In this document: positions 1 through 18,407 of the stretch, one piece after another
Numbering within the stretch: position 1 is the stretch's first letter
How the letters are laid out: every line of letters starts with the position of its first letter
Assembly: GCA_050250255.1 (NCBI GenBank)
Contig: JBFWOZ010000051.1
Span: 1 to 18,598, forward strand
DNA: 18,598 nucleotides
Direction of reading: 5' to 3'
Source: Bdellovibrionales bacterium
GTDB lineage: Bacteria > Bdellovibrionota > Bdellovibrionia > Bdellovibrionales > DASUEL01
The notes under the pieces: model-generated
The model's database searches: none
Seen by the model: the letters and a program-made list of their open reading frames with translations, nothing else
What the model was told of the DNA's origin: nothing
Program-made: the position numbers and the translations under genes

Positions 1-420
1 GCTCAAAGCGCTCTCGTCATTTCAAACCTTATTAGCTCTGGTTCTGCGATTTGCAAAAAAACTCTTACTGAGACCTTTAAAAAATATCGTGTTCAGTTTA
101 TTCCTTATCAATGGGGAGCTGCTCAGCTTCAGTTGTGTCCAGGATATCGAGTGCTGGCCCTCAACCTCATTGATATCGAAGCTGCTGTCCCTCTTAGCAT
201 TCGAGTTTTTACTGCTCATTCGCGTGAATCAGAGTTTAAAAGCGAACAAATCCTCATTCAACGACTTTACGAGGACGGAAAGAAGCTTGGAAGCACTATG
301 AACAGTGAGTTTCCAAATCTATGGCCACAGCTCGAAGACGATCCATCTCTTCCTTATGAGTCTTGGATTCGTAACCAAATTCTTGGGTGCAACAATGTTT
401 CCATGGGGCACTCAAAATGA
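1..420 (+). CDS. Hypothetical protein, 5'-truncated (C-terminal 139 aa visible)
   Basis: Frame 1 is open from base 1 (AQSALVISNL...) to TGA at 418-420, so the ORF extends past the 133 start in the track. Its stop overlaps the next ATG (ATGA, 417-420). Confidence 0.75.
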   Translation, partial: AQSALVISNLISSGSAICKKTLTETFKKYRVQFIPYQWGAAQLQLCPGYRVLALNLIDIEAAVPLSIRVFTAHSRESEFKSEQILIQRLYEDGKKLGSTMNSEFPNLWPQLEDDPSLPYESWIRNQILGCNNVSMGHSK

Positions 421-1721
421 TCTTAGTAAAAATCTTACCTCTTTTATTTATTGCCTCGCTTTCCTTCGCCCAAGAAACATCTTCAACAATGTTATTTGGG
501 TTCGGTAAGAAAAAACCTAAGCCACCTTCTCAACCGCCCGTAAGATACGCCCAAACAAGCACGGCCGTCGTCACGACAACAAATACCTCTTGGCACTTCC
601 CTGCAGGTTCAGACTCCAATAGTCCCCTCGTATGGCAAGGCGACACTCTCATTGCTTTTAACTCTGCAGGACACCCTTGGCGCAGCCAAGGTGGGACACT
701 TTTCGAATTAGGAAAAGCGGAGCGAGTAGAGTACATCAACGGCAACAACGGTGGCCGTTGGATGGAAGCCGTGATCGCAGATCCCAACCAACAAGGTGTT
801 CTCTATGGCTTTTATCACAACGAACCCAATATCGAAGATCCAACCCAACAAGAAAAAGTAGGTCTTTGTTCTACCGCAGTGGCTCGCCCACTAGAAGCAG
901 AAATCGATGGGATTATTGATCCCAATGCTCGACGAACTGTTCCTCGCATCGGTGCCGCGATCTCTTTGGATTCAGGAGTTTCGTGGGTCGATATGGGAAT
1001 TATTTTAGATGTAAATCCCCAACTTCTTTTACTCGGTCAACAATGTCTTCATTCACAAAACGCCTACTTCATTGGTGGCCATGGTGATTTCAGTGTGATC
1101 GCGGATAAAAATAACCAATATGTCTTTATTTATTTTAGTAACTACACTGGACTCTTACAGGATCAGGGAATCGGCGTGGCTTATCTTAACTGGTCTGATC
1201 TTTCCGCCGCCAGCGAACAGGTCAGAAGAATTTTATCTTCCCCCACTCGCGATCAGGAACTTTCGAGAATCAATGTCCATAGAACAACGATTCAAGCTCA
1301 TAAGTATATTACTAGCGGTTGGAACCAGCCCGGACTTGGCGGATACGTGTCTGCCATCAATCCTGCCTTTGCTGCTAAGAGAAGCTGGCACGAACCGGTC
1401 ACCGATGTTTATTGGGGACCTTCCGTTCATTTCAACACTTATCTCAACCAATACGTTATGCTTCTGAATCACACAGTATTAAGTAATGCCTCTTGGAAAC
1501 AAGAAAGCGTTTATATTTCCTTCTCCGACGCCATCGAAAATCCAGAGGGTTGGAGCCCGCCCGTTAAACTTTACACCGGCGTAAACTGGTACCCACAAAT
1601 CGTTGGCGCTCCCTCAGAGCGAGGTACCGACAAAGAAGCCGGCCAACAAGCCTACTTCTTCCTCGGCGGAAATCTCTTAGGACAAGTGCGCTTCTTCAAA
1701 GCCGGCGAACAACTCCCCTAA
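417..1721 (+). CDS. Secreted Asp-box beta-propeller protein (glycoside hydrolase-like fold, function unknown)
   Basis: Start re-called at ATG 417 (ATGA overlap, GGGG upstream). Signal peptide MILVKILPLLFIASLSFA. Asp-box SLDSGVSW at 963-986. Blade-like motifs LYGFYHNE, GGHGDFSV, YWGPSVHFNTYLNQYVMLL and WYPQ. Confidence 0.7.
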   Translation: MILVKILPLLFIASLSFAQETSSTMLFGFGKKKPKPPSQPPVRYAQTSTAVVTTTNTSWHFPAGSDSNSPLVWQGDTLIAFNSAGHPWRSQGGTLFELGKAERVEYINGNNGGRWMEAVIADPNQQGVLYGFYHNEPNIEDPTQQEKVGLCSTAVARPLEAEIDGIIDPNARRTVPRIGAAISLDSGVSWVDMGIILDVNPQLLLLGQQCLHSQNAYFIGGHGDFSVIADKNNQYVFIYFSNYTGLLQDQGIGVAYLNWSDLSAASEQVRRILSSPTRDQELSRINVHRTTIQAHKYITSGWNQPGLGGYVSAINPAFAAKRSWHEPVTDVYWGPSVHFNTYLNQYVMLLNHTVLSNASWKQESVYISFSDAIENPEGWSPPVKLYTGVNWYPQIVGAPSERGTDKEAGQQAYFFLGGNLLGQVRFFKAGEQLP

Positions 1722-1740
1722 AAGGTGCGCCGCTCCTTTT
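1720..1740. terminator. Probable bidirectional intrinsic terminator
   Basis: AAAAGGTGC-GCC-GCTCCTTTT is a 9-bp stem with one mismatch and A/T tracts at both ends, between convergent genes. Confidence 0.6.
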
Positions 1741-1763
1741 GGTAGCAATAGCGCGTTAAGTAA

Positions 1764-3638
1764 TTAAGGCGACAACATGTCCGGCTGAGACATGAGAGTT
1801 TTGTATTGAGCTTCTCGGTCCAATTGAAATTGTCGCCAGCGTACCGCTGGATTCTCTTTCATTATTTTTTGAATATCAGCAACCGTAAAAGCATAAGTGC
1901 GCCAGTCAATACGTGGCTTAATCGTTTCACGATAATTAAATGCCCAGTTGTTATGTGCCGAAACAAGTTCATGTCGATATACAAACCATTTCTTTGCATA
2001 CGGAAGCGCCTCAAGTTGCTGCATAACTTGAGCTTTCGTTGTGGTTACAGCAAATTGCACATTTTGTTCTTTCATAACAGAGTCAGGATTTGTAAAGCCC
2101 GATTCATACAGCTGCCTCCAGACATGCAAATAAGCACCCACTAATTGCTGCAGACCTGACAAAACTTCCTTATCGCCTGAGTAGACCTCTATCGCATTTT
2201 GCTCTTTTAAAAATTCATCCAGCTCCTGAAGTCGTTGAATACGTGCTCCCGTTGTCCGCGCAAAGTGGGGATCTACAACGAAAACCCCTTGAATCGGAGT
2301 AACGTAGGGTCGCGCTGAGATCTCTGCATACTTCGCCATCTGATCTCGAAATTGCTCCAAAGGAAGCTCTTGAGAAAATTGTGAAGCAATGTCTTGCGCA
2401 TCAGATTCTGTAACCCCTGCCTTTAGTACTTTTGCTGTTATCAATTTTTCGAGAAGACTAGAAAAGTTTCTCAATTCATACTGAGCCTTATTTTGACTAC
2501 CGTCTTTTAAAGATTGAGACGATTGTCCTCGCGCGAATAACTGCCAATGGCGGAGAGCTTCTGCAGACATCCGACCTTCTGTCTTCTGAACAAGATCCGC
2601 AATCGAAAACGATACTTTATCTAAACCATATTTCATCAACACATCTTTGAGAGGAATAACAAGTGCCAATTCATTGGGGTTATCTTTGTATCCAGAGAAT
2701 CTCTTCATTCGATGCGTTCGCATATAAAGCCCCGAGTGACCTCGATCTAGAGAGTGGCCAAAAATATAAGCGTCTTCAACCTTACCACCATTAAGAATAA
2801 GCTCATGGTAGGCATAGAATGCTGAAATTCTTATCGCCTCTTCAAAGCCATATTCGTATTCATTATCTCGTGCGGCTCTTCCTAATTCCCAAATGTGTTT
2901 ATATTTGGTTCGATCAATCGGCACGAGCAGGCGCTCGTCTTCCAGAGCTAAGGACGCTTTTTTACCAAAAGGCTGACCCGAGATGAGCACCGAAGCTCCC
3001 ACTTTAAGTCGATACTTCTGGCGATCTTTTGATTCGGGTTTATTTTCGTCAAGCAAGCTCATGTCTGTCATGGCAAAATGTTCTTCAACTCCGCGATCCA
3101 CGGGATCTCGTCGTGCATGATCCGGAATTTTTCCGTAACGCTTAACGAGTTCCGCGCGAGTTAACTCATCAGTAATTTCAAAAAATGTAATTTGGTCCGT
3201 CGAAAGCTTCTTCAGAGCATTGGAATGAAATTGAATTTCTCTAGGGTCCACATACTGGATGTCTTCCATAGACTTAAATGAGTAATATTGATTGCGATCA
3301 ATTAAAGTTTCGCCCTTACTTCCCGAAGCCATTTCGACTTGCAATGGATTTATATTAATATACGGAGTGTCGAGGCGTCTTGCGAGAGAATAGCCTGTCG
3401 AATAATATTGACCCTCCTGAATGAGTCCATATTCTCCAGACGAGTAGCCGCCCTCCCTGTAGTATAACTGCATGTACGTTGCTGAATTAAAAGATTTTTG
3501 CCCATAATACCGCCAGATCGAAACTTGAATTTTCTCTCTTGGGCGTTTCGTGCTTGGCACCATAAAGGGGCCACATAACTCAGCCCATGCAGATAAACTA
3601 AAGACTGAAATGAGAGAGACAATTAAAACCTTAAACAT
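1764..3638 (-). CDS. Secreted hypothetical protein (624 aa), paralogue of 3647..5437, possible GNAT-like fold
   Basis: Long ORF, RBS AAGGA, signal peptide MFKVLIVSLISVFSLSAWA. Shares motif blocks with the neighbour (IWELGR, AYHEL..GG..DAYIFGHSLD, PLKDVLMKY). Confidence 0.85.
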   Translation of the reverse strand: MFKVLIVSLISVFSLSAWAELCGPFMVPSTKRPREKIQVSIWRYYGQKSFNSATYMQLYYREGGYSSGEYGLIQEGQYYSTGYSLARRLDTPYININPLQVEMASGSKGETLIDRNQYYSFKSMEDIQYVDPREIQFHSNALKKLSTDQITFFEITDELTRAELVKRYGKIPDHARRDPVDRGVEEHFAMTDMSLLDENKPESKDRQKYRLKVGASVLISGQPFGKKASLALEDERLLVPIDRTKYKHIWELGRAARDNEYEYGFEEAIRISAFYAYHELILNGGKVEDAYIFGHSLDRGHSGLYMRTHRMKRFSGYKDNPNELALVIPLKDVLMKYGLDKVSFSIADLVQKTEGRMSAEALRHWQLFARGQSSQSLKDGSQNKAQYELRNFSSLLEKLITAKVLKAGVTESDAQDIASQFSQELPLEQFRDQMAKYAEISARPYVTPIQGVFVVDPHFARTTGARIQRLQELDEFLKEQNAIEVYSGDKEVLSGLQQLVGAYLHVWRQLYESGFTNPDSVMKEQNVQFAVTTTKAQVMQQLEALPYAKKWFVYRHELVSAHNNWAFNYRETIKPRIDWRTYAFTVADIQKIMKENPAVRWRQFQLDREAQYKTLMSQPDMLSP

Positions 3639-3646
3639 CTACTTCC

Positions 3647-5437
3647 TTAAAATTGATCCAGCATCCTTAAGTTCCATCGGGTTTGCCAAGACCCAGGGAA
3701 AAGCGTTCCAAAAGTATCATCAAAAATTTTAGGATGCTTTTTTTGAAGCTCCACAATTTGTTCTATATCAAAAATGTGAACATGAATGGGCTTCGTGTAG
3801 ATCGTATTGATCCAATCCATAGAGCTTTCTAAAGGTCGTACTGCTTGCGTCTTAAAACTTGCGACGTCTTGAGGATCGGCGGGAGCTTGATACGATAAAA
3901 CTTCTGCTGGCGAAAGTTTTTTGATCGCCTCTGATAGGGCTGAATCATAAGTGCTAATCGCAAAACGAAGTTTAGCACCTCGAATCTCCGCGAGAGATTG
4001 CCTAACACGTTCAACAGTATTCTCTGGATAAGAAATTTTGCGTGCGTAATAAGTGACAAGTGAAAACAACACTTTTAGAGGATACTGAGGATCAATCGTT
4101 AGTAACCGAGGATCTAAATTCGAAAGTTCCACCACATTTTTAGGACTTAACATGGGATGGAGCATTTGCGGATCACTGGCGTCGTTATACTGCCCTAATC
4201 CCTCAAACAAATAAGTCGCACGAAAGATCTTCATATACTCTTCAAGCTTGGCTTCAACAAACTCACTTCTGAAACTCTTCGCGAGACGCCTCAAAATCAC
4301 CGCCCAGCCACGCGAATAATCTGCGAAGAGCAGCGGCAACATTTGTTCTGATTTTCCTTCAAAGCGATAATTTAATTCTTGCCAGTAAGTTTCTTGAATT
4401 CCCGAATGCAGAGTCATGAGCTCTTCTTCAGTCAACTTACCGTCGAACGCTTTGTTGAGTGCCGCAAACTGCGCGGAAAGTTCAGAAGGTTTGTATTTCA
4501 TGAGTAAATCTGTAAGCGGCACCATAAACAGCGAGTTACTTGGATTGCTGTGTCCTTTTGGAAAAACTGAATCGGGATAGGCTTTCAAATACAATTTGGT
4601 ATTCGCCTCATCGAGTGAATGAAACATCACGTAGGCATTATCTAAACTTCCACCCATAGAACGAAGCTCACGGTAGGCCAAAGCCACAAGAACGTGACGT
4701 AGTTGCTCATGCTCACCCGCAAGATCTTGAGCTCCTCGTCCCCATTCCCAAACGTATCGATATTTTTGGCGATCAAAGTTACTAGAAATTTTGTGATACG
4801 CAGGTTCTAACTGCCAAGGAAGAGAGGTCGGCTGCATACGTCGTTCTGCGGGATCCCATATCTGGCCAGCTACTGACCACATGGTCGCCGTGCGAAATGT
4901 CCTTTGATCGGGATGATTGTAATCGCTAAAAGCAGACTCCACCCTTTCTCTCGGATAAGGTTCAAAGTTACGAAGAATCCAATTCTCCAAAACTTCATGA
5001 CTGGATTGCACAAAAGTAATTTGTTCGTGTATTAAATTATGAATGAGACCTGCATATTCTTTTGCATCAGTCGCTGTTAAATAGCCTGTCTCAACCATCC
5101 GACGAAGCGCATATGCTTGTTGTTGCATCAGAGGTATTTCTTCAGGAACATTTGTTGAATGGTGATCAACTCCCGTATCAGGCTGGAAACGGTTTCCTAT
5201 GCGTTTCCAATTCATGCGTGTTGAAGTGTGACGGTCGCGACCAATTTGGTTGAAGCGGGTTACAGAGATTGTTTGGGGAAATTCCTTTAACTCTTTTCTC
5301 ACTTTTGCATTCATTTTGAATGAGTCTTGGAGAGGCTCAGAACCACCTAGTTTAGGGCCACAAACCGGAGATTTTGACCCCGCATTCGCAACTCCCCAAA
5401 CCAGAAAAAAAATAAGGAAAATCAGACCCTTCAACAC
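3647..5437 (-). CDS. Secreted hypothetical protein (596 aa), paralogue of 1764..3638, possible GNAT-like fold
   Basis: Long ORF, GTG (5437) or TTG (5434) start, signal peptide ending GVANA. Motifs VWEWGR, AYREL..GG..NAYVMFHSLD, PLTDLLMKY. Only 8 bp separate it from the downstream paralogue. Confidence 0.85.
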   Translation of the reverse strand: MLKGLIFLIFFLVWGVANAGSKSPVCGPKLGGSEPLQDSFKMNAKVRKELKEFPQTISVTRFNQIGRDRHTSTRMNWKRIGNRFQPDTGVDHHSTNVPEEIPLMQQQAYALRRMVETGYLTATDAKEYAGLIHNLIHEQITFVQSSHEVLENWILRNFEPYPRERVESAFSDYNHPDQRTFRTATMWSVAGQIWDPAERRMQPTSLPWQLEPAYHKISSNFDRQKYRYVWEWGRGAQDLAGEHEQLRHVLVALAYRELRSMGGSLDNAYVMFHSLDEANTKLYLKAYPDSVFPKGHSNPSNSLFMVPLTDLLMKYKPSELSAQFAALNKAFDGKLTEEELMTLHSGIQETYWQELNYRFEGKSEQMLPLLFADYSRGWAVILRRLAKSFRSEFVEAKLEEYMKIFRATYLFEGLGQYNDASDPQMLHPMLSPKNVVELSNLDPRLLTIDPQYPLKVLFSLVTYYARKISYPENTVERVRQSLAEIRGAKLRFAISTYDSALSEAIKKLSPAEVLSYQAPADPQDVASFKTQAVRPLESSMDWINTIYTKPIHVHIFDIEQIVELQKKHPKIFDDTFGTLFPGSWQTRWNLRMLDQF

Positions 5438-5449
5438 ATAAGCCTTATG

Positions 5450-5465
5450 AGCAAGCCATATGCCT
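5450..5465 (-). promoter_or_regulatory. Sigma54 (-24/-12) promoter for the paralogue pair
   Basis: Minus strand AGGCATATGGCTTGCT has exact GG-N10-GC spacing, with GGCA and TTGCT matching the TGGCACG-N4-TTGCW consensus. Confidence 0.7.
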
Positions 5466-5477
5466 GTCTAGAAAGGT

Positions 5478-5499
5478 TAAAGGGCTCTAGAGAGCCCTT
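5478..5499 (-). terminator. Hairpin, probable terminator of the 7337-5555 operon
   Basis: AAGGGCTCT-AG-AGAGCCCTT is a perfect inverted repeat (5480-5499), ending in TTT and followed by AACCTTT on the minus strand. Confidence 0.55.
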
Positions 5500-5554
5500 A
5501 CTAAAAGTGACCTGTCAGCTTTTTAGACAACTGCAAAGTTCCTCACGAGTACGC

Positions 5555-6295
5555 TTATTTTCTCAGCTCGGGACCAATTTTCGCGAAGGCTGTTTTTGCA
5601 GATGCCACCGCGATATTTGAGAGAAGAGTTTCGTCGATAAAGGCACTCCCTCCAACCGAAGTTTTTGACTCTTCTCCGTCGATGCCGCCATCAAACCATA
5701 TGTGTTTTTCAACGCCTTTTTTGTAAACAAAAAAGCTCACCTTTGATTGAGGATAACGACTTCCAAGACCCATAATCGAAGTTCCATTCAGTATGACGTT
5801 CACACGCGCAACCATAATGGCATCCACCTTCAATGCCTCGATCAACTCGTCGCGACCTTTCATATCAAGAATGCGTGGCCCTTCGGCATCCATGACTTGA
5901 GCCACGAGGAACTGGTTCATCCCTTCACCAGGAGGCATCTTGTTCTGCCAACCATCCATTGTTTGTTTGTAAGCCTTCACATATCCCGCATTCGAAGCCA
6001 TGGTCTTTTTATCCATCACATTCCAACGAAGATTTTTCTTTAAAGCTTCGGACAAATCCGTGTACATAAGATCCGCGTGCGTTCCTTCTGTGGGCATAAA
6101 ATTCGCCGTGTTCCCAGCCTTGAGCTGCCCTTTACTTAAATCCACACCGAGCGAAGCCGATGATGGCTGTTGAACCATAAAAGCCACCACGGCGACTTTT
6201 TTAATTTCTCCAACCGCAGCTTCATCTTTGAAGTGCGTAAGCCCAGAACAACTGATCATCGCTAATGCAATCATAGCTAAAAATATATTTTTCAT
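5555..6295 (-). CDS. Lipoprotein, possibly CsgG/LpoB/TolB-N-like alpha/beta fold
   Basis: ATG 6295 follows GAAGGTG. Lipoprotein signal MKNIFLAMIALAMISC. Motifs KKVAVVAF and ALKVDAIMVARV resemble this fold (inference). Confidence 0.75.
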   Translation of the reverse strand: MKNIFLAMIALAMISCSGLTHFKDEAAVGEIKKVAVVAFMVQQPSSASLGVDLSKGQLKAGNTANFMPTEGTHADLMYTDLSEALKKNLRWNVMDKKTMASNAGYVKAYKQTMDGWQNKMPPGEGMNQFLVAQVMDAEGPRILDMKGRDELIEALKVDAIMVARVNVILNGTSIMGLGSRYPQSKVSFFVYKKGVEKHIWFDGGIDGEESKTSVGGSAFIDETLLSNIAVASAKTAFAKIGPELRK

Positions 6296-6313
6296 AAACA
6301 TCACCTTCTTATT

Positions 6314-6847
6314 TTAGAAAAACCAGCCGAGGTCGGCATACATACTGCCACCCGCCTGAGAAATTCCGATATGGTAACCAAGCCCCGCATTGAAACCACT
6401 CGACGCAAGCCAATCCACACCGACAGAACCGTAAAAGAGCGTGCCTGATTTTTTCACTCCTTGAATTTCGAGCTCTCCGTCGCCTTCAAAAGCCACGTGC
6501 GAAACCGCAAGGCCTGCAATCGGGCTAAAGCTCATTCCCGGAACAAAAGCCGTCGCCCCTGCACCGTAGGTCGTCACCTTTGTTGTTTTACTGACGAGAG
6601 TGTTGCCATTAGAACTGATGCCCGTCGTTGCTTCAATTTCACCGTAGCCGACACGTGCACGAAGGAAATCGTTCATGTTGTAAGAAGCATTAAGACCAAT
6701 GAGAGAAGGAAAAGGATTTCCTACGCTCAAGCCTACGCCTACTTTTTTTGCTTCACGATTGGAAGGCATGTCGGTAGAAATTTCTCCAGAAGCCAAGGCA
6801 GAAGTCGCCATTAAGTAGATTACAAATGGAAATAAAAATTTGCTCAT
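6314..6847 (-). CDS. Small outer-membrane beta-barrel protein
   Basis: Signal peptide ending SALA, alternating amphipathic Gly/aromatic-rich strands, C-terminal beta-signal YADLGWFF, RBS GAGG. Confidence 0.8.
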   Translation of the reverse strand: MSKFLFPFVIYLMATSALASGEISTDMPSNREAKKVGVGLSVGNPFPSLIGLNASYNMNDFLRARVGYGEIEATTGISSNGNTLVSKTTKVTTYGAGATAFVPGMSFSPIAGLAVSHVAFEGDGELEIQGVKKSGTLFYGSVGVDWLASSGFNAGLGYHIGISQAGGSMYADLGWFF

Positions 6848-6857
6848 GTTCTACCTC

Positions 6858-7337
6858 TTACAACTTTTGAAATTCAGTTTTGAAGCCGACCGCAAGAGTG
6901 CACGGACCCAATTTCTGAATGCTGTAAGTTAAACGATAGTTTTGTCCAGCAGTGACCGAGTGAGAGGCTACTGTCGCGGTGAAGTAGCGGAGATCTGCCG
7001 AACGGCCGTCTTGAATAGTTTCAATCGTCAAGAAACGAATAAACTCGTTTGACGAAGGACAATTGATCGTTGTGACATGAGGATTCACCACACGAAGCAT
7101 TCCAGTCTCAGTGGCCGTGTATGTGAAGAACCATTTTTTGTCTCCACCAGCATGGCCATTGAGAACAATTTCATTTTGTTCTGCCGCCGGTGCATTCACT
7201 TTTAACGCTTGAGTTTCTGGGCTCTGATAAGGCGCAGTTGCCGGGGCCGCATCCCCGCCACCGCCCTCTACCGTCGCAGAACACGCCGCCAGTACGGTCA
7301 TTGATAAAACAAAAAACAGACGAGTCGATCTTTTCAT
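6858..7337 (-). CDS. Lipoprotein, hypothetical (beta-rich, two further Cys)
   Basis: Lipobox LAAC after a basic and hydrophobic N-terminus, a Gly/Ala/Pro linker, RBS AAGGGG. Confidence 0.8.
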   Translation of the reverse strand: MKRSTRLFFVLSMTVLAACSATVEGGGGDAAPATAPYQSPETQALKVNAPAAEQNEIVLNGHAGGDKKWFFTYTATETGMLRVVNPHVTTINCPSSNEFIRFLTIETIQDGRSADLRYFTATVASHSVTAGQNYRLTYSIQKLGPCTLAVGFKTEFQKL

Positions 7338-7376
7338 AAATTCCCCTTTAAAGGTTTTAGTTGGTTGAAGCGCGGG

Positions 7377-7405
7377 AATCTATGAGCGCCTTTACTAAAA
7401 GTAAA
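7377..7405 (-). promoter_or_regulatory. Candidate sigma70 promoter of the lipoprotein/OMP operon
   Basis: Minus strand TTTACT-N17-TAGATT, about 40 bp upstream of the ATG at 7337. Confidence 0.45.
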
Positions 7406-7406
7406 G

Positions 7407-7431
7407 GAAATTTTAATTTTATTAAAATTTC
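7407..7431. promoter_or_regulatory. Candidate TetR operator
   Basis: Perfect 11-3-11 inverted repeat GAAATTTTAAT-TTT-ATTAAAATTTC between the divergent tetR gene and the operon. Confidence 0.55.
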
Positions 7432-7454
7432 ATATAATTATATTTAAACTTAAT

Positions 7455-7481
7455 TAAAGTTTTTTTGAACTATGCCGATAC
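7455..7481 (+). promoter_or_regulatory. Sigma28 (FliA)-type promoter of the TetR gene
   Basis: TAAAGTTT-N11-GCCGATAC matches the consensus TAAAGTTT-N11-GCCGATAA at 15 of 16 positions. Confidence 0.75.
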
Positions 7482-7487
7482 GTGAAT

Positions 7488-8120
7488 ATGGCTAAAGTCC
7501 GCAAAAAGACTCAGAAATCTGGCGATGTGTCCTCCCAGGTCAGCCTCAAAAATAAGATTATCGATGCCGCATTTTTTTGTTTTGCCGAATCAGGGGTGGG
7601 CACCACCAAGCTCACTCAGATCGCGGCAAAAGCCGGGGTCGAAGCGCCCCATATGCACTATTATTTCCCTACTTTCGAAGCTCTTTTTACCGAAGTAGTG
7701 AATATCGCGCTTGAAGACTTAAGAGCTTACTCGGTACGAAATATTGAAAAAGGCAGAGGCGATCCCCGAAAAGCTCTCGATCTTTACGTTAAAGCCCCTT
7801 TTGAGTGGGCCAAAGAAAGACCTACCTACCTTCCGGTGTGGATGTATTTCTATCATCTCGCAGCCTGCGACAAAAAATTTGGTCGATTGAATCGCAACAT
7901 ACGTGAAATTGGACGAGATCGCATTTCTTTATTGATTTATAAAGGTATTGAAACAGGACAGTTCAAAAAAAATTCAGAATTTGAAGTTCCTGAACTTGCC
8001 ACTCTTATTCAAGGGCTTATGACAGGCCACGGGGTACTCGCCGCCTCCGAAGAGGGTGGAGATTTTGATCAGCAATACAGGCTCGCTCTCAAAGCGATTC
8101 ATTCTCTTATCTTGAAATAG
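7488..8120 (+). CDS. TetR/AcrR-family transcriptional regulator
   Basis: N-terminal HTH IIDAAFFCFAESGVGTTKLTQIAAKAGVEAPHMHYYFPTFEAL and a C-terminal GIETGQF motif. ATG 7488 is preferred over GTG 7482 because of the promoter position. Confidence 0.93.
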   Translation: MAKVRKKTQKSGDVSSQVSLKNKIIDAAFFCFAESGVGTTKLTQIAAKAGVEAPHMHYYFPTFEALFTEVVNIALEDLRAYSVRNIEKGRGDPRKALDLYVKAPFEWAKERPTYLPVWMYFYHLAACDKKFGRLNRNIREIGRDRISLLIYKGIETGQFKKNSEFEVPELATLIQGLMTGHGVLAASEEGGDFDQQYRLALKAIHSLILK

Positions 8121-8178
8121 ACACTCAAGGCTCTTGCCCCACCAAGGAACTAAAGAGTCTCGTCTATTTTAATAAACC

Positions 8179-8207
8179 TCTCTAACCCTCTCGGGTTAGA
8201 GATTTTT
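8179..8207 (+). terminator. Intrinsic terminator after tetR, possibly bidirectional
   Basis: TCTCTAACCC-TCTC-GGGTTAGAGA is a perfect 10-bp stem followed by TTTTT. Confidence 0.75.
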
Positions 8208-8246
8208 AAAGCAAAGTACATACTTAAGATGCACGGCTGTGAAAAT

Positions 8247-8681
8247 TTAATCGTCGTCGTCTTGGATAAATTCAATTCCAGAGCGTTCACCAGCAAAATA
8301 CCATCTATACAGTACGTTGCCAGCTGCAGTTTCGTACGTCTCTAGTTCCGCATCGTCATAGATATCTTGATTATATGGAAGATAGGTTCTTTGACCCATG
8401 ACAAGACCAATAAATTCGCGATCACCGTCATTACAACCATAGATGGCGACAATGTTTCCTCCAGACATAGGGTTAACAAGTCTAAACATATAGCTACCTG
8501 CGGCAAGTGTATCGCCATCTACAACATATACGCTTGCTTCATCGGCATCAAAATCAGCTGAGGAAATCGTCAGCGATTTTTCTAAAGTGAAGTGTGATTC
8601 TCGGCTTGGATTAATAGTCGCGTGCGCAGTGGTCGTAACAAACAACAACATGGCAAAGGCCAGATGGATAATTTTTTTCAT
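8247..8681 (-). CDS. Secreted acidic hypothetical protein (about 144 aa)
   Basis: RBS AAGGAG upstream of ATG 8681, signal peptide MKKIIHLAFAMLLFVTTTAHA, Asp/Glu-rich mature part ending QDDDD. Confidence 0.75.
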   Translation of the reverse strand: MKKIIHLAFAMLLFVTTTAHATINPSRESHFTLEKSLTISSADFDADEASVYVVDGDTLAAGSYMFRLVNPMSGGNIVAIYGCNDGDREFIGLVMGQRTYLPYNQDIYDDAELETYETAAGNVLYRWYFAGERSGIEFIQDDDD

Positions 8682-8749
8682 AATTCGTAGCACTCCTTAA
8701 AAGGGTTAAAATATTTTTTCGCATTCTCATGCTATTTTCATTTGCGCAG

Positions 8750-8765
8750 TACAAGAACCGTGCCT
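8750..8765 (-). promoter_or_regulatory. Sigma54-like promoter for 8247..8681
   Basis: Minus strand AGGCACGGTTCTTGTA has a GGCACG -24 box, N4, and a TTGT variant of the -12 box at the correct spacing. Confidence 0.55.
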
Positions 8766-8893
8766 TTCATCTATGCGCCTTTTTCGGCAGGTTTCAAAAG
8801 CCAGTTGGGCAAATTGCCACTTTTACGAGGGCAAAATGGTACAGCACAATGAATAAATTTGCTTTCATCGTAGTAAGGCGCGAGAATTTATGA

Positions 8894-9745
8894 ATGAAAC
8901 AGAAAATATTTTTTGCATTGCTTCTTGTCGTAGCTCTTAACGCCTTAGCCCAAACTAATAATGAGGAAGTCGTCGCCACGAGAACTCATGGCGGTTACGG
9001 CTTCATCGAGCTAGCAAAGGGTTTAGATGATTTTCTAACTTTTGACCAATTTATGTTTCAGCATAGAATATGTATCGTGACCGGCACACCTGAGTTTCCA
9101 TCCCTTCTCCAAACTCTTCAAAAAGAAAAGAATGGTAAGGATTTTAAAACACAATTCATGTACGGAAATGCTCATTGCAAAAATTTTACTAAAGGTTTTT
9201 GTAAACACCCAGAAATTTACAAATCTCATAGCCAACTTTTAATGATGTGGCCCAATTATCCTACTGAGGCGGCAACATCCTTTGATCCGCCCGCATTTAT
9301 AGGCCTGCACACGAAAGACGACAAGAGAATTACCACTTCCTTTTTCATTGGTTCTGAAACGACTTTTACTTATGCCGATGAGCAAGGACAAATCGTTGAA
9401 ATGAAAGCGGACAATCTTCTTCCGCAACTTTATTTTGGTTCTTTAAAAGTTCGCAAATATGATCCTGATCTCCCTAAACAGGATATGACGAAAGATGGGT
9501 ATGTGCTAAACGGGAAGATTGGCACTCCCTTAACGATCATTTATCCCATGTCCTCTTACAAAGATGGGATCAAGATCGTTAACAAAAAAACGGGTAAGCC
9601 AATTTTGAATCACGAAGGCAAACCGCTCGTTTTAAAAATCGATAATTATTTGAGATGTCTCAAAAAACAGATGAGTCAATCTGCGGACTACAGTTCGCGG
9701 CCACCGACTCCCACTACACCAAAGCCCCCGAGTACTTCACGCTGA
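8894..9745 (+). CDS. Secreted hypothetical protein (283 aa)
   Basis: Signal peptide MKQKIFFALLLVVALNALA, four Cys, Pro/Thr-rich C-terminal tail RPPTPTTPKPPSTSR. Confidence 0.8.
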   Translation: MKQKIFFALLLVVALNALAQTNNEEVVATRTHGGYGFIELAKGLDDFLTFDQFMFQHRICIVTGTPEFPSLLQTLQKEKNGKDFKTQFMYGNAHCKNFTKGFCKHPEIYKSHSQLLMMWPNYPTEAATSFDPPAFIGLHTKDDKRITTSFFIGSETTFTYADEQGQIVEMKADNLLPQLYFGSLKVRKYDPDLPKQDMTKDGYVLNGKIGTPLTIIYPMSSYKDGIKIVNKKTGKPILNHEGKPLVLKIDNYLRCLKKQMSQSADYSSRPPTPTTPKPPSTSR

Positions 9746-9757
9746 GGCGCTTTCGCC

Positions 9758-11563
9758 TCACTGATTTTCCGACGAGAGCTCCATCCACTTCGTCTCAAGT
9801 GATTGGATCGTGGTCGTGTTGTCGGCCATTTGTTTCACGAGTTCACTCGAATATCCGCCGCCTGAAAGCAATTTTTCATTGAGCTCCTGATTTTCTTTTT
9901 CAAGCTTTTCAATTTGCTTCACACATTGACTCATTTCTTTTTCAATTTGCTTTGCGCGCTTCTCGAGTTCTTTTTTGTTTTGTCTTTGCTGTTTGATTTC
10001 GTCTTTTGGAGAATTCCCAGAACCCTTACTCGTCTCATCAGAAATAGACTCTTCTTCTAAGTCACCCGAGGCTAAGTTTTGTTGAATCCGCCAAACATAT
10101 TCTTCATATGGTCCTGGGTAGAGATGAACTGATCCTTTAGATACTTCGAGAATCTTTGTCCCAACTCGTCTGATAAAATGACGATCATGGCTGACAATAA
10201 TGAGTGTTCCTTCGTATTTACAGAGAGCCTGGGTCAGCGCTTCGACCGTTTGAAAATCTAAATGGTTCGTCGGCTCATCGAGCAATATACAGGGAACTTT
10301 TTGAAGGAGAATACGTCCCAACGCCACTCGCGACTTCTCACCTCCCGAAAGTACTTTCACTTTTTTCTGAATGCTGTTGTCGGTAAAGAGTAAAGCTCCT
10401 GCCATCGCACGAATTTCTTGAGGAGTCGTGCTTGTTTCAGTGACGTCTTCTAAAGATTCATACACGGTGTGATCAGGATCCAGAACTTCAATGACGTGTT
10501 GATTAAAGATGGCGATTTCCACTTGGTGCCCAAGAGTGCGCTCTCCTTTTAAAGGCGCAAGAGTTCCCGCAATTCCCTTTAAAAGAGTCGACTTGCCAGC
10601 CCCATTCAAACCCACGACCGCCACGTGATCGCCGCGTTTAATTTCTAAAGACACGCTTTTCAAGACTGTTTTCTCTGGATATCCAAGTTGCGCTTCATTT
10701 AATTGCAAAACCGTTTTCCCTACATGAGGAGGTCTAGGAATATGAATTGCCGCCTTGATCGGAACCGGCTTCAACTCCACGGTTTCCATTTTCTCTAATG
10801 TTTTTAATTTACTCTGCGCCTGTCTCGCCTTTGTGGCCTTCGCACCGAAACGGTTCACAAAATCCATGACGGCTTTTCTCTTCAAAGCTTGGCTTTGGGC
10901 TTGCGCCTCAAGCTGAGTACGCAAAAGTTCTTTTTGCTCAAAATAGTCGTCGATATTTCCGCTAAACTTAACAACCTCTCCGGCTTCGATCTCTAAAATA
11001 TGATCGGTGGTTTTTCGTAAAACTTCGCGGTCATGAGAGATGAGTAAAAAAGCGCCCCGGTAATTTTGCAAAAATCCTTCAAGAAGAAGTGTGGTCTCTA
11101 AATCTAAATAGTTCGTAGGTTCATCGAGCAGCATGAGGTTGGGATCCATTCCCAAAAGACCAATGAGCTTAATGCGCATACGGTAACCACCACTCAAACT
11201 CAAGATGGGCTTCGCAAAGATCTCCTCAGAAACTTGAAGCTCGCGTCCTAATGTTTTTGTTTGCCACACGGGCAAACGGCAGATGCGCTCGAGATAGGAG
11301 TTCCCTGTCTCCTCCGGAAGCCATTCATCATGCTGAGATAAATAGCCAAGTCGTAAGTTTTGTGAACGAACCACTTCACCGTCATCAAGCTTCTCTTGTT
11401 GAATAAGAATTTTAAAAAGTGTGGATTTGCCTGCACCGTTAGGACCGATCACCCCAACGTGTTCGCCCTCGTTGATAGAAAATGTCGCTTGCTCAAATAA
11501 AACTTGAGGGCCGTAAGATTTATGGCCATTATTCATTTGAATGAGATTTTGTCCGTCTGCCAT
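9758..11563 (-). CDS. ABC-F family ATPase (Uup/YheS-like)
   Basis: Two ABC domains (GPNGAGKST and GLNGAGKST, two LSGG signatures, two LLDEPTN Walker B motifs, SHDR switches), linker RFGAKATKARQAQSKLK, C-terminal coiled coil, no transmembrane segments. Confidence 0.95.
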   Translation of the reverse strand: MADGQNLIQMNNGHKSYGPQVLFEQATFSINEGEHVGVIGPNGAGKSTLFKILIQQEKLDDGEVVRSQNLRLGYLSQHDEWLPEETGNSYLERICRLPVWQTKTLGRELQVSEEIFAKPILSLSGGYRMRIKLIGLLGMDPNLMLLDEPTNYLDLETTLLLEGFLQNYRGAFLLISHDREVLRKTTDHILEIEAGEVVKFSGNIDDYFEQKELLRTQLEAQAQSQALKRKAVMDFVNRFGAKATKARQAQSKLKTLEKMETVELKPVPIKAAIHIPRPPHVGKTVLQLNEAQLGYPEKTVLKSVSLEIKRGDHVAVVGLNGAGKSTLLKGIAGTLAPLKGERTLGHQVEIAIFNQHVIEVLDPDHTVYESLEDVTETSTTPQEIRAMAGALLFTDNSIQKKVKVLSGGEKSRVALGRILLQKVPCILLDEPTNHLDFQTVEALTQALCKYEGTLIIVSHDRHFIRRVGTKILEVSKGSVHLYPGPYEEYVWRIQQNLASGDLEEESISDETSKGSGNSPKDEIKQQRQNKKELEKRAKQIEKEMSQCVKQIEKLEKENQELNEKLLSGGGYSSELVKQMADNTTTIQSLETKWMELSSENQ

Positions 11564-11571
11564 AGCACATG

Positions 11572-11600
11572 AAGATAACGGGACGCTGATAAGATTACAA
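11572..11600 (-). promoter_or_regulatory. Candidate sigma70 promoter of the ABC-F gene (near-leaderless)
   Basis: Minus strand TTGTAA-N17-TATCTT ends 8 nt before the ATG. No Shine-Dalgarno sequence is present. Confidence 0.5.
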
Positions 11601-11681
11601 GAAAGTTTAAAGGATCAGAAACCTGGTCTTAAGTCTATCCAATTCTCTTCAGCAATCCCTCAGGTTTGACGAAAAGAGAGC

Positions 11682-13013
11682 ATGCCATCTACGAAAAATT
11701 ATAAATTAACAGATGACGGACACCATGAACTCCTAAAAATCATGGATGTTTGTTTTGGTGCTTATTTTATTGGCTTAGCTTTACTCTCAGGGGTAGCAGC
11801 CTATAACCAACAAACGAGTTGGTGGGGTTTTATCAGTCAATTGTCGTTTCCCATCACTAATCTCATAATTTCGCAGGTTTCCTTTCGCCTAAAAAATCCA
11901 ACGCCATTTGAAATTTTCCGGCTTTCACTCAATTGCATTTTTTTTGCGCCACTTGCGTTTTTACTTACTGATGGTGCGCTTGATCAATATTGGATTACTG
12001 CCGCTATGCTTACGCTTGGTAGCTCTATTATCGTTATGTCCATTACTTCTAATCCTACCCACGGAAAGATCATTGTGTGTGCCTATGTCACGATGATGGT
12101 TTTGGTCGCTACTTTCTCTCCTAAACCAGTGAACTGGTATCTTTTTGGAATGTATGCCGGCTTGGCATTAATGTTAGGTAGCTTTATCACACAGACAATG
12201 GAAGTTCTGACAAAAAGTTTAAGACGTGAGTCAGAGCACACACAAGAACTCGAAAGATCACAAAAAATCATCATGGACCAACAACAAGCCTTGGTGAGTT
12301 CTTCGAAAATGTCAGCGCTTGGTGAAATGGCCGGCGGAGTGGCTCACGAAATCAATAATCCTTTGGCTGTAATCAAAACTCTCTCCGCACAACTCCTTGA
12401 AGTGATAGAGGAACAAAATATCGATCGACCTTTAGCCAAAGAGATGGCAACACAAATAGAAAGCACCACAGATAGAATTGCGAAAATCGTTCGGAGTATG
12501 CGTTCTTTCTCTCGGGATGGCAGCAACGACCCTTATCAGTCTGTGAACATTCATCAATTAATTGAAGAAACCTTGAGTTTTTGCAGAGAACGATTTATCG
12601 GTCACGGCACTCCAGTCACCGTAGAAAGTTTCAACAAAAATTTATGCATCGAAGGGCGCTACACCGAGCTTTCGCAAGTGCTTCTGAACCTTTTTAATAA
12701 TGCCCATGATGCTATTCTTCATCACACAGATAAATGGATAAAAGTGTCCGTCTCTGACCAACAAGATTGGGTAGAGCTTCATATAACAGATAGTGGAACA
12801 GGCATTTCTCCCGAAGTGCAAAACAAAATGTTTCAACCCTTTTTTACTACAAAAGAAATCGGGGCAGGTACCGGTATGGGCTTGAGTATTTCAACAGGCA
12901 TTATTGATAGCCATAGTGGTGAACTGCGCCTAAACAATAAATGCAAGAATACCTCTTTTGTTATTCGCTTACCTAAGTTTCAAAAGCCTGCCCGTTCAAA
13001 ATCAGCTGCCTAA
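11682..13013 (+). CDS. Membrane-bound sensor histidine kinase (HisKA + HATPase_c, NtrB-like)
   Basis: About 6 N-terminal TM helices, H-box LGEMAGGVAHEINNPL, N-box QVLLNLFNNAHDA, G1 DSGTGI, F-box FQPFFTTK, G2 GTGMGLSI. Confidence 0.95.
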   Translation: MPSTKNYKLTDDGHHELLKIMDVCFGAYFIGLALLSGVAAYNQQTSWWGFISQLSFPITNLIISQVSFRLKNPTPFEIFRLSLNCIFFAPLAFLLTDGALDQYWITAAMLTLGSSIIVMSITSNPTHGKIIVCAYVTMMVLVATFSPKPVNWYLFGMYAGLALMLGSFITQTMEVLTKSLRRESEHTQELERSQKIIMDQQQALVSSSKMSALGEMAGGVAHEINNPLAVIKTLSAQLLEVIEEQNIDRPLAKEMATQIESTTDRIAKIVRSMRSFSRDGSNDPYQSVNIHQLIEETLSFCRERFIGHGTPVTVESFNKNLCIEGRYTELSQVLLNLFNNAHDAILHHTDKWIKVSVSDQQDWVELHITDSGTGISPEVQNKMFQPFFTTKEIGAGTGMGLSISTGIIDSHSGELRLNNKCKNTSFVIRLPKFQKPARSKSAA

Positions 13014-13066
13014 GCATCAAGATGCATAAAACTTTGCAAGATTTTCGAGGCAGCCCATCCATCCTT

Positions 13067-13810
13067 TCATGACAAAAATATTCCCTTATAAATCATCGCT
13101 ATGCCTAGCAAGAGAATAAAAAATGAAACGAGTCTTTTAAAGACTCGCTCCGGTAGTTTTTTAAGAACGATAATTCCAAAAAATGTTCCTATTAAAGCGC
13201 CAAGAGTTGCGACGATCAAAAAATTCGTTTGGGCAAGAAGCGCTGGGCCTTGATTCATAAAGTAGATTGGCATTCTCGCCAGATCAACAAGTACCCCAAT
13301 CGCCGTTGCTGTCCCCACAAAAGTATTTCGATCTATTTTAAATCCCAAGAGAGCGGCCGACCGAATCCCTCCCTGATTTCCAACTAAACCTCCGAGCATT
13401 CCCGAGAGGGCTCCCATAATCCATGCCATTTTTGGTCCAAAGTGAAATTTTTCATTCAGTCCTGTGGATCCAGTGAATCCCGCAAAAGTTAATATGAAAC
13501 CAAAAATAAGAGTCAGCACTGATGGATGAAAGTTCGCATTAAGAAGAGCGCCCAGCAAACCACCGGCGGCGCTTAAAATTCCGAAATGTATAAGCACCTG
13601 TCTGTCGATGTGATGTCGTAAAATCCAAAATCGCGTGAAGGTCGCAACAAGATGCGGAACCGAAACGACAGCTACGGCAAGTTTTGTATCTAGTTTGAGA
13701 GCAAGAAGAGGTGTCAGCAGACTACCAATTCCAAAGCCCGATACCGCCGCAACTCCACCTGCTAACACTGAAACCACCAATAGCGCTAAATGAAAGATAT
13801 CCATATTCAA
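13067..13810 (-). CDS. TauE/SafE (TSUP) family membrane transporter
   Basis: About 8 TM helices with an internal repeat (SGFGIGSLLTPLL and GGLVGNQGGIRS). RBS AGGGG precedes TTG 13810; ATG 13804 is an alternative start. Confidence 0.88.
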   Translation of the reverse strand: MNMDIFHLALLVVSVLAGGVAAVSGFGIGSLLTPLLALKLDTKLAVAVVSVPHLVATFTRFWILRHHIDRQVLIHFGILSAAGGLLGALLNANFHPSVLTLIFGFILTFAGFTGSTGLNEKFHFGPKMAWIMGALSGMLGGLVGNQGGIRSAALLGFKIDRNTFVGTATAIGVLVDLARMPIYFMNQGPALLAQTNFLIVATLGALIGTFFGIIVLKKLPERVFKRLVSFFILLLGIAMIYKGIFLS

Positions 13811-13885
13811 GTTTCCCCTAACGTCACTTTTTGAGCCTTTCTATTCATGCCCACAATTTCCTATAGTTCCAACAAGTAAAACTGC

Positions 13886-13902
13886 TATGACAAGTTGTCA
13901 CA
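13886..13902. promoter_or_regulatory. Palindromic operator candidate, copy 1
   Basis: TGACAA-G-TTGTCA is a perfect palindrome (13888-13900). The 17-mer is 16/17 identical, inverted, to 18462..18478. Confidence 0.55.
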
Positions 13903-13922
13903 AAATTGGGTTAAACCTCATT

Positions 13923-13951
13923 TTGAATGGACTCCAACACCATATTATTCT
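13923..13951 (+). promoter_or_regulatory. Candidate sigma70 promoter of the P1B ATPase
   Basis: TTGAAT-N17-TATTCT upstream of RBS GAGGA and ATG 14010. Confidence 0.45.
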
Positions 13952-14009
13952 TAATACCTGTATGTACTAAGGCTTAGAAGTTCACTAGTAACTGTATAAA
14001 GAGGAAACT

Positions 14010-16319: not shown

Positions 16320-16343
16320 AACTGTAGTTTAGCTTGATCAAGC

Positions 16344-16727
16344 TTAGCTTCGATGTTTTGTCCAATCTAATAGAAAAGCAACAAATACACCGATCGACAC
16401 GACACTCGAAAGCAACACGGCCCCTGCAGCACAGTCTTTTGCTCGCTTAATTTCAGGGTGTAGCTCTGGATGAAGTCGATCTATAAGATATTCTAGCGCT
16501 GTATTTATCATTTCAGTCGACAGGACACTTCCGATCGTTATTATCAATAAGCCCCACCACATAGGTGAGGCGCCGAGTATTGCGACAATGCTCAAGACCA
16601 AGACGGCTATAAGACATTGAAAGCGAAAGCTTGACTCTCTCTTCAAGGCTATTTCAATTCCGTGCAATGCAAACCTAAGGCGCTTGCGAAACGGCTTATT
16701 TTTCATTCGGCTTATTTGCGTTGTCAC
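16344..16727 (-). CDS. dgkA: Diacylglycerol kinase family protein (prokaryotic DgkA type)
   Basis: RLRFALHGI, ESSFRFQ, three TM helices, EMINTALE and AKDCAAGAV motifs. Start is GTG 16727 or ATG 16706. Confidence 0.9.
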   Translation of the reverse strand: MTTQISRMKNKPFRKRLRFALHGIEIALKRESSFRFQCLIAVLVLSIVAILGASPMWWGLLIITIGSVLSTEMINTALEYLIDRLHPELHPEIKRAKDCAAGAVLLSSVVSIGVFVAFLLDWTKHRS

Positions 16728-16953
16728 TTTTTATAGCCTTTCCATTTTCTATAGATTGAATTCTCGAAAGAAGTACTGAGTGCTCTTGTGCGTTCTGTCT
16801 TTCCAATACTGAAATCTTTTCCTCTAACGCTTTGATATTTCGAGGTAGTTCAATGTAGTTTTTGAACAATGTGGATAAGACAAAATATCCAACTACAAAA
16901 AGCATAGCTATTGCGAACATGCCTACCATGAACGCTTTTCCCAGTCCTGACAT
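16696..16953 (-). CDS. Small single-TM protein with coiled-coil C-terminus
   Basis: RBS GAGGA, hydrophobic N-terminal helix, heptad segment IKALEEKISVLERQ, fills the gap in a co-oriented operon. Confidence 0.7.
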   Translation of the reverse strand: MSGLGKAFMVGMFAIAMLFVVGYFVLSTLFKNYIELPRNIKALEEKISVLERQNAQEHSVLLSRIQSIENGKAIKSDNANKPNEK

Positions 16954-16964
16954 CCCGTCCTCCT

Positions 16965-17390: not shown

Positions 17391-17404
17391 TCCATTTCCC
17401 TGCC

Positions 17405-18160: not shown

Positions 18161-18162
18161 TA

Positions 18163-18372
18163 TTACTTTGAAATAGTCATGAGTGCGTTGTAGTCATCAC
18201 CTCGAACAGACAAAGCAATTCTATTGATAGTGTCAAAGCCTCGACCCTTTAAAAAAATCTCGAGTTCTTCCTTTAACTGAGCAAGGTAGACAACTTCAAA
18301 AGCCGTCGGTCCTTTTCTCACAATTTTATTAACTTGTGGCTGAGTATTCATTTTTTGGAGTTGGCGTGGCAT
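18163..18372 (-). CDS. Small hypothetical protein (69 aa)
   Basis: RBS AAGGGGA 5 nt before the ATG. Tandem stops TAATAATG overlap the LOG start, suggesting translational coupling. Confidence 0.7.
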   Translation of the reverse strand: MPRQLQKMNTQPQVNKIVRKGPTAFEVVYLAQLKEELEIFLKGRGFDTINRIALSVRGDDYNALMTISK

Positions 18373-18407
18373 GTTGTCCCCTTTGTTAATTTGTTAACAG
18401 CTTAAAC

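Follow-up and report, generated by a model that had tools for sequence, protein, structure and literature searches.

To our knowledge, all characterised enzymes of the LuxI/FeeM fold subtype, that is, the acyl-homoserine lactone (AHL) synthases and the N-acyl amino acid synthases, act in the cytoplasm on acyl groups carried by acyl carrier protein (acyl-ACP) or coenzyme A (acyl-CoA). Two adjacent minus-strand genes of a Bdellovibrionales bacterium raise the question of whether a branch of this fold works outside the cytoplasm. The genes lie in an 18,598-nucleotide window (contig JBFWOZ010000051.1 of GenBank assembly GCA_050250255.1, positions 1 to 18,598), and their products are called here paralogue A (P0001) and paralogue B (P0002). 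A sequence-only reading of the window had described them as exported proteins with GNAT-type motifs that belong to no named family and might act as a heterodimer. Its observations were confirmed; of its interpretation, the GNAT fold (in predicted models), the strand motif, the export signals and the lack of a named family were supported, and the heterodimer was not. Our interpretation, to which we give about even weight, is that A and B are diverged paralogues of an unannotated Sec-signal family that is predicted to combine an N-terminal LuxI/FeeM-like GNAT domain with a degenerate second GNAT-like domain, and that they are likely exported N-acyltransferases. A Sec-exported branch in which the Glu and Arg of the fold are intact would imply that a GNAT has a new extracytoplasmic acyl donor, that the proteins are delivered into another cell, or that the fold has found a new, non-catalytic use.

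The two open reading frames (ORFs) were found exactly where the sequence-only reading had placed them, 8 bp apart (Table 1), and every collinear block that it had listed was recovered in both products. The pairwise alignment that it had suggested as a check of paralogy was significant (BLASTP E = 6e-22, 25% identity over 258 columns, residues 100-340 of P0001 with 110-362 of P0002). The C-terminal halves were not detected in the pairwise BLASTP, yet they aligned in the family alignments, and F492, T496 and F556 in this half were invariant in a five-sequence family alignment. The stop codon of A and the spacer make up a Shine-Dalgarno-like site, AAGGAAG, ahead of the ATG of B. Since the spacer is 8 nt long and forms this site with the stop codon, A and B are probably co-transcribed. 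The GC content of the pair (0.42-0.45) was like that of the remainder of the window (0.40-0.48). Three sequencing runs of one landfill-metagenome study were found to contain the DNA, one of them perhaps its source, and no RNA run was listed.

The N-termini of A and B share a short basic n-region, a hydrophobic core of 12-15 residues and a small-x-small site, with CGP soon after. In A, MLKGLIFLIFFLVWGVANA is followed by GSKSPVCGP, with the cut predicted between ANA and G; in B, MFKVLIVSLISVFSLSAWA is followed by ELCGP, with the cut between AWA and E. The Sec signal followed by (L/V)CGP that had been reported for both proteins was thus present in both. Signal peptides were judged by reading the sequences and with a crude hydrophobicity rule. 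A signal-like hydrophobic segment followed a start codon in 24 of 26 family members taken from genomes (one exception had a weak core and the other had none), a count that is biased upward because the starts of these members were picked by that very feature. Among 138 Met-starting database representatives, whose starts had been called by others, 93 passed the same rule, and several of those that failed are evident late start calls. The mature proteins of the family are cysteine-poor. A cleavable Sec-type signal peptide is, on this reading of the N-termini, a trait of the family members, in agreement with the earlier proposal of an exported family. A and B were also considered as lipoproteins, and this was rejected since the residues up to the first Cys of the mature proteins (ANAGSKSPVC and AWAELC) do not form a lipobox.

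In public annotation B is a protein of 569 aa (P0003) that begins at Met56 and lacks the signal peptide. Homologues of B keep a conserved sequence, the W-R/K-Y block, upstream of Met56, which favours the ATG at 3638 as the true start. The database entry of an orthologue in G001 (P0013), the closest relative of the window's genome, also starts at a Met that is too far downstream. For some members of the family, automated annotation thus conceals the export signal.

The extent of the family was determined with several searches. A pattern scan of species-representative genomes gave 60 matches, of which five were confirmed as family loci, all from metagenome-assembled genomes (MAGs) labelled Bdellovibrionales, Bdellovibrionia or uncultured Bdellovibrio sp. 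P0001 alone as the query matched in 3 of 41 genomes of the same order, the window's own genome counted. A five-sequence profile matched in 19 of 401 Bdellovibrionota genomes, which represent 14 of 204 genera, with at most three copies per genome; none of the 53 genomes of family f11 and none of the 100 of family f22 had a member by this profile. HMMER with a 26-sequence profile over 1.84 billion cluster representatives returned 309 proteins at E <= 1e-3, 281 at E <= 1e-10 and 187 at E <= 1e-30, and the best 150 of the 309 were mostly 450-700 aa long. Look-ups of the clusters of 20 representatives produced one name, "hypothetical protein [Bdellovibrionota bacterium]". The homologue search for taxonomic range suggested with the original observation thus placed every member that could be placed in Bdellovibrionota, as far as names allow. 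The family is real, modest in size and unannotated, and its definition brings together about 300 clusters that current annotation leaves as "hypothetical".

That the proteins belong to no named family was borne out by the Pfam, NCBIfam and PDB-profile searches and by the cluster look-ups. P0001, P0002 and four homologues matched no Pfam or NCBIfam family, and no GNAT model of either collection at E <= 1; a PADLOC scan of P0001 and P0002 gave no match, and a word-indexed homologue search with P0002 returned nothing but the query itself. Sequence-profile searches of the PDB with alignments A1 and A2 yielded one spurious Cas7 row at E 0.17 and then no rows. The ESM Atlas had no usable feature match and its own model was poor (pTM, the predicted template modelling score, 0.29); a cluster that includes FeeM was its single, weak structural match. 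Searches of the literature on exported or periplasmic GNATs, FeeM, tandem GNATs and Bdellovibrio found no account of a LuxI/FeeM-like family exported by Sec. The Lipocone preprint (10.1101/2025.01.14.632903) refers to secreted "acyltransferase" proteins that are paired with CapCone-2 genes in Bdellovibrionota, and their family, which may or may not be the present one, is left unnamed there.

Models of both proteins were predicted with AlphaFold2, for P0001 from a 5-sequence alignment (predicted local distance difference test, pLDDT, 70.8; pTM 0.70) and for P0002 from a 26-sequence alignment (pLDDT 78.6, pTM 0.79). The predicted models have the mixed alpha/beta order of a GNAT fold (beta1-alpha1-alpha2-beta2-4-alpha3-beta5-alpha4-beta6). 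In a VIA-align comparison of the models with 48,161 chains, the P0002 model scored 11.1 with TofI, 11.1 with FeeM, 11.0 with RpaI and 10.5 with LasI. Foldseek matched the P0001 model to FeeM with probability 0.99 and gave TofI as the top match of the P0002 model (E 5.8e-4). The GNAT fold of A and B is well supported for a prediction, and in both models the LuxI/FeeM subtype came first, by about 1 Z unit over generic GNATs; the sequence-only reading had anticipated this fold. The toxins AtaT, KacT and TacT were among the fold matches; a GNAT toxin of a toxin-antitoxin pair was ruled out by the signal peptides, the length of about 600 aa and the lack of an antitoxin-like neighbour.

Residue conservation was counted, in P0001 numbering, in an alignment of 148 sequences. 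Besides P0001 and P0002 it included the database representatives that reach 450 aa; four that fall short of this length were left out, as was P0003, which duplicates P0002. E231 was present in 147 of the 148, and R234 was Arg in 140 and Lys in 6, so that Arg or Lys occupies this position in 146. G233 was Gly in 128 and Ser in 15. Other well-conserved residues were G191 (131), Q192 (127), Q139 (127), R223 (124) and Q107 (121). The last of these lies in helix alpha1, which carries Q-x-F-x-L-x-x-M (Q107, F109, L111, M114 and Y119 in P0001). The strand with E231-R234 and the long helix, strand and helix that come after it form, in the predicted models, the beta4-alpha3-beta5-alpha4 core of a GNAT. 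The W-E-x-G-R strand, to which the sequence-only reading had pointed as a LuxI/FeeM motif, is the most conserved feature of the family; the H-S-L and L-Y residues cited with it are not invariant, since H273 is found in 113 sequences and the tyrosine of the "LY" helix (Y283) is frequently Phe. This variation of classical GNAT helper residues would suit a non-catalytic GNAT-like protein that binds or scaffolds acylated molecules, such as lipids or N-acyl signals, in the periplasm and transfers nothing. The clear degeneration of the second domain and a periplasm with no known donor would suit it as well. However, the near-complete conservation of one Glu and one Arg/Lys on beta4 over very long branches is the pattern of a catalytic site or a charge cluster and not that of a loose binding surface, and a mere binder is an unlikely explanation.

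In the C-terminal domain the corresponding strand is V-V-E-L-S-N-L-D, with Asn440 in 105 of the 148 sequences. Because its Glu is kept in just 60 of them, the domain shows the pattern of a degenerate partner. An internal duplication was not shown, as hhalign of the N-domain against the C-domain found no similarity. A further recurrent feature is a lone cysteine. A Cys between the signal peptide and helix alpha1 was present in 118 of 141 sequences with a complete N-terminus, and in 60 of the 141 it lay exactly 8 residues ahead of Gln107; this column (P0001 position 99) is Cys in 79 of the 148 aligned sequences. The remaining members, both window proteins included, have the Cys 60-140 residues upstream of Gln107, and Cys26 of P0001 and Cys22 of P0002 stand a few residues past the predicted signal cleavage site. 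A few members have both positions, near alpha1 and at the mature N-terminus, and past residue 18 a Cys occurs exactly once in 65 of the 141. That an exported protein conserves one thiol suggests that this thiol has a function: it may carry an acyl group, form a disulfide between molecules or bind a metal.

The LuxI-type AHL synthases are, together with FeeM, the closest to the family in predicted fold (TofI, 3p2h; LasI, 1ro5; EsaI, 1kzf; and the CoA-dependent RpaI, 6wn0, MesI, 6wns, and BjaI). LuxI enzymes have a beta4 signature, E-x-S-R, with conserved Glu and Arg, and bind S-adenosylmethionine (SAM) through N-terminal Arg, Phe and Trp residues. A and B are alike in carrying Glu and Arg on the predicted beta4, here as E-x-[G/S]-[R/K], an equivalence drawn from strand position in the models and not from superposition. 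The SAM-binding residues have no evident counterpart, and the residues of the Q-x-F-x-L-x-x-M helix may or may not stand at equivalent positions. A and B differ in location: LuxI enzymes are cytoplasmic, and A and B, judged by their signal peptides, would be exported to where SAM and acyl-ACP are not at hand. The Pfam scan of P0001 and P0002 had no PF00765 (Autoind_synth) match at E <= 1. A six-frame search for the same model was blank in all 11 genomes (the window's genome and 10 relatives), as it was in the control genomes, so this second negative is weak alone.

FeeM (2g0b; PF21926) is an N-acyl amino acid synthase from uncultured soil bacteria that is cytoplasmic and uses acyl-ACP. A and B show no match to it at the sequence level, are three times longer, and have signal peptides and a second domain. 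PF21926 and PF13444 (Acetyltransf_5) had no match in the window; the only match to either in the window's genome is at contig C25, 8713-9129 (locus L041), in a 589-aa open frame that presumably encodes a fusion of another domain with a canonical lipoamino-acid-type N-acyltransferase of the cytoplasm. FeeM-family domains (PF21926) occur in 89 of 151 Bdellovibrionota genomes (loci L062-L081 among them), often in frames of about 420-450 aa and in some of about 1190-1210 aa, which suggests several fused architectures. For a profile comparison with hhalign, 18 FeeM-family domains from Bdellovibrionota were aligned. The whole family gave E 0.12, the N-domain (148 sequences) 0.044 and the C-domain 0.071, with probabilities of 0.5-1.2%, none significant. 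At these non-significant scores the best alignments set W-E-x-G-R-A-A opposite a-E-v-S-r-l-a-V, with the helix-strand-helix after the motif in register from beta4 to alpha4. Since A and B match no sequence model of the LuxI and FeeM families and, judged by their signal peptides, lack the cytoplasmic location of both, they are filed in neither, although by their predicted fold they would belong to the GNAT superfamily.

A protein closer to FeeM in its habits could be obtained from the same sequences if the N-terminal segment were an uncleaved anchor, with the rest facing the cytoplasm and working as a lipoamino-acid synthase on acyl-ACP, like FeeM or OlsB. This arrangement would solve the donor problem, and it draws on the fact that the signal peptides were judged by a heuristic rule. 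However, a basic residue ahead of the hydrophobic core and sites of the small-x-small type are what is expected of Sec signals that are cleaved and leave the C-terminus outside. Moreover, the proteins have few cysteines, as exported proteins do, and the genome already has a canonical FeeM-family domain on contig C25. We consider an anchored synthase very improbable. In architecture, A and B with their predicted second GNAT-like domain would resemble tandem-GNAT proteins, such as VipF of Legionella (6wqb) and MAB_4324 of Mycobacterium abscessus (7q3a). MshD is another tandem-GNAT protein.

If A and B are exported N-acyltransferases, catalysis, long-chain specificity and place of action would be as follows. 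Once the protein has been exported by Sec, an activated acyl group, probably a long-chain one, would be bound in the N-terminal domain, where beta4 and beta5 form a cleft. The general base would be the invariant Glu (E231 in A, E251 in B), with the Arg three residues on as its structural partner, and the acceptor of the acyl group would be a molecule of the prey or of the predator's own envelope that has a primary amine. The C-terminal domain, with its Glu lost in most members, would act as an intramolecular partner or a substrate-binding half, as in other tandem GNATs. Several points weigh against this proposal. The signal peptides rest on a crude hydrophobicity rule, by which the genome-derived starts were also chosen. 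The structures are predictions, in which the LuxI/FeeM rows exceed generic GNATs by just about one Z unit, and H273 and Y283 are not invariant. No sequence method (Pfam, NCBIfam, PF00765 and PF21926 in six frames, PDB profiles or hhalign) ties the family to any GNAT family. Finally, all the closest known enzymes take their acyl groups from acyl-CoA or acyl-ACP, neither of which, as far as we know, is to be expected in the periplasm. This donor problem could be resolved in three ways: the proteins may act within prey or on prey that leaks, they may draw on a lipid donor through the conserved Cys as a covalent carrier, or catalysis may have been lost.

The first of these ways leads to a prey-directed effector, a special case of the acyltransferase proposal with place and donor defined. 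The proteins would leave the predator and, in the prey cytoplasm or in the bdelloplast once prey contents have leaked, would N-acylate a target of the prey with its own acyl-ACP or acyl-CoA. The restriction of all placeable members to Bdellovibrionota agrees with this idea, as does a predicted fold nearest to enzymes that depend on these donors. Nonetheless, the patchy distribution (19 of 401 genomes, and none in f11 or f22) shows that the family is no part of a core predation kit, control by a TetR regulator (see below) suggests a conditional function, and to be delivered across the inner membrane of the prey the proteins would need more than a Sec signal. We regard a prey effector as unlikely.

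The second way would be a periplasmic GNAT independent of CoA and ACP. The lone Cys would carry an acyl thioester taken from envelope lipids and the invariant Glu would act as the base for transfer to amines of the prey or of the own envelope, for example those of de-N-acetylated peptidoglycan; this version is quite improbable. Envelope acyltransferases that use neither CoA nor ACP exist: Lnt has a nitrilase fold, a catalytic Cys and a thioester intermediate, and PagP is a beta-barrel. Their folds are unrelated to those of A and B, so that any likeness would be one of function, provided that the lipid-donor idea holds. Lnt has a catalytic cysteine and the present family a lone conserved one, whose role in catalysis is hypothetical. 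A review of Bdellovibrio (PMC10482364), in the passage in which it cites Thomashow and Rittenberg 1978, describes lipid acylation of the prey wall once the Braun lipoprotein has been removed. No gene assigned to this acylation was found in our searches of the Bdellovibrio literature. A periplasmic GNAT with a Cys thioester, if true, would provide a gene family for the kind of wall acylation that was reported biochemically for bdelloplasts in 1978; the patchy distribution of the family makes it unlikely as a general explanation of it.

The history of the pair was examined in a maximum-likelihood tree of the 26 genome-derived members. P0001 fell in a clade of 10 rows (Shimodaira-Hasegawa-like approximate likelihood ratio test, SH-aLRT, 99) and P0002 in a separate clade of 7 rows (SH-aLRT 95), inside a subclade of 4 (98). 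Since the two clades are separate and each includes members from other families of the phylum, A and B are, by this tree, old paralogues and not a recent tandem duplicate. The tandem arrangement of homologues, which the sequence-only reading had proposed to check, was seen in the window's genome only: among 26 loci with 27 members, two members stood side by side in one, the window. In G001, which belongs to the same family as the window's genome, the A-type and B-type orthologues are on different contigs, the former at a contig end and the latter directly after a pyruvate phosphate dikinase gene. These findings speak against the obligate heterodimer suggested earlier, in which A and B would work only together. 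The two genes, 8 nt apart, are probably co-translated and GNATs frequently dimerise, which would suit such a complex. Besides the rarity of the tandem, the unlinked orthologues and the separate old clades, however, just one member occurs in G008 and in several other genomes, each protein appears to have two GNAT-like halves of its own, and both A and B keep the catalytic-type motif. An obligate heterodimer is very improbable.

Table 1. Coordinates of the gene pair, its sequence features and the adjoining genes in the window
Feature	Position	Strand	Description
Paralogue B (P0002)	1764-3638	-	624 aa, ATG start; signal peptide aa 1-19; LuxI/FeeM-like GNAT domain (predicted) about aa 34-340; C-terminal region collinear with that of paralogue A
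Motif E251-L-G-R254 of paralogue B	2877-2888	-	Same motif as in paralogue A; E251 nearly invariant in alignment A3; strand 248-257 in model
Signal peptide of paralogue B	3582-3638	-	MFKVLIVSLISVFSLSAWA; read from sequence; hydrophobic core mean 3.04; A-W-A before predicted cut
Intergenic spacer A/B	3639-3646	-	8 nt; with the stop codon of paralogue A, TAAGGAAGTAG ahead of the paralogue B ATG
Paralogue A (P0001)	3647-5437	-	596 aa, GTG start; signal peptide aa 1-19; N-terminal LuxI/FeeM-like GNAT domain (predicted) about aa 47-340; second GNAT-like domain (predicted) about aa 344-578
Motif E231-W-G-R234 of paralogue A	4736-4747	-	Family motif E-x-[G/S]-[R/K]; predicted strand beta4 (228-232 in model)
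Signal peptide of paralogue A	5381-5437	-	MLKGLIFLIFFLVWGVANA; read from sequence; basic n-region; hydrophobic core (Kyte-Doolittle 10-residue mean 3.26); A-N-A before predicted cut
Conserved lipoprotein	5555-6304	-	249 aa; directly upstream of paralogue A; no Pfam/NCBIfam match
Small signal-peptide protein ending ...GWFF	6314-6847	-	Outer-membrane beta-barrel-like by sequence reading alone; no family match
Candidate lipoprotein	6858-7337	-	159 aa; first gene of the minus-strand cluster; weak sub-threshold Pfam hints only
AT-rich divergent intergenic region	7338-7481		Overlapping palindromes; candidate promoters and candidate TetR operator, inferred from sequence
TetR-family regulator	7482-8120	+	Divergent from the cluster; PF00440 E 3.5e-9, PF13977 E 6.7e-4

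The genes around the pair were compared all against all with those of the other loci, in total 270 ORFs of 26 loci. The minus-strand cluster of the window has the order lipoprotein, barrel-like protein, lipoprotein, A and B, and the TetR gene is divergent across the AT-rich palindromic spacer, whose inverted repeats include one with arms at 7391-7417 and 7421-7447. The one strongly recurrent neighbour was the TetR-family regulator, in 8 of the 26 loci (the window, L009, L011, L042, L043, L044, L052 and L058). It lies at most three genes from the family member in varied orientation, and once overlaps the 3' end of the member on the same strand. These regulators are 21-40% identical to that of the window over the full length, and the members beside which they occur come from three clades or more. 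Since there are just three TetR_N matches in the 3.09 Mb of the window's genome, the window's regulator being one of them, it is unlikely to be a neighbour by chance. The regulator of the window has a BetI-type C-terminal domain at sub-threshold scores. The TetR regulator is linked with the exported GNAT-like family and appears to be dedicated to it, with binding to the operator predicted, and a small ligand would release the repressor and turn expression on. The family, which as far as names allow is restricted to the predatory Bdellovibrionota and probably has a ligand-sensing regulator of its own, offers an experimentally tractable entry to the modification of envelope or prey lipids by predators.

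The other members of the cluster recur less often. Homologues of the 249-aa lipoprotein adjoin family members in 4 of the 26 loci, and its lipobox Cys is invariant in the 4-sequence alignment. The small barrel-like protein has one homologue beside a family member, at locus L052. In an uncultured Bdellovibrio sp. MAG (locus L010, 3716-5100), a barrel-like protein and a trypsin-like secreted protease, so labelled from their sequences, precede the family member and replace the TetR/lipoprotein pair. The 117-nt spacer between the lipoprotein gene and A includes a perfect 9-bp inverted repeat, AAGGGCTCT ct AGAGCCCTT, at 5480-5499, with no clear T-run after it; it could be a weak terminator, an attenuator or a protein-binding site.

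Three more ORFs of the window, at 387-1721 (+), 8247-8693 (-) and 8894-9745 (+), have signal-peptide-like N-termini and belong to no Pfam or NCBIfam family, and the neighbourhood is, by this reading, rich in exported orphan proteins. Elsewhere the window has ordinary genes, including those at 14010-16319 (+) and 11682-13013 (+), that encode a heavy-metal P-type ATPase with YHS and HMBD domains, a histidine kinase, an ABC-F protein, a TauE exporter, a diacylglycerol kinase and a LOG-family protein.

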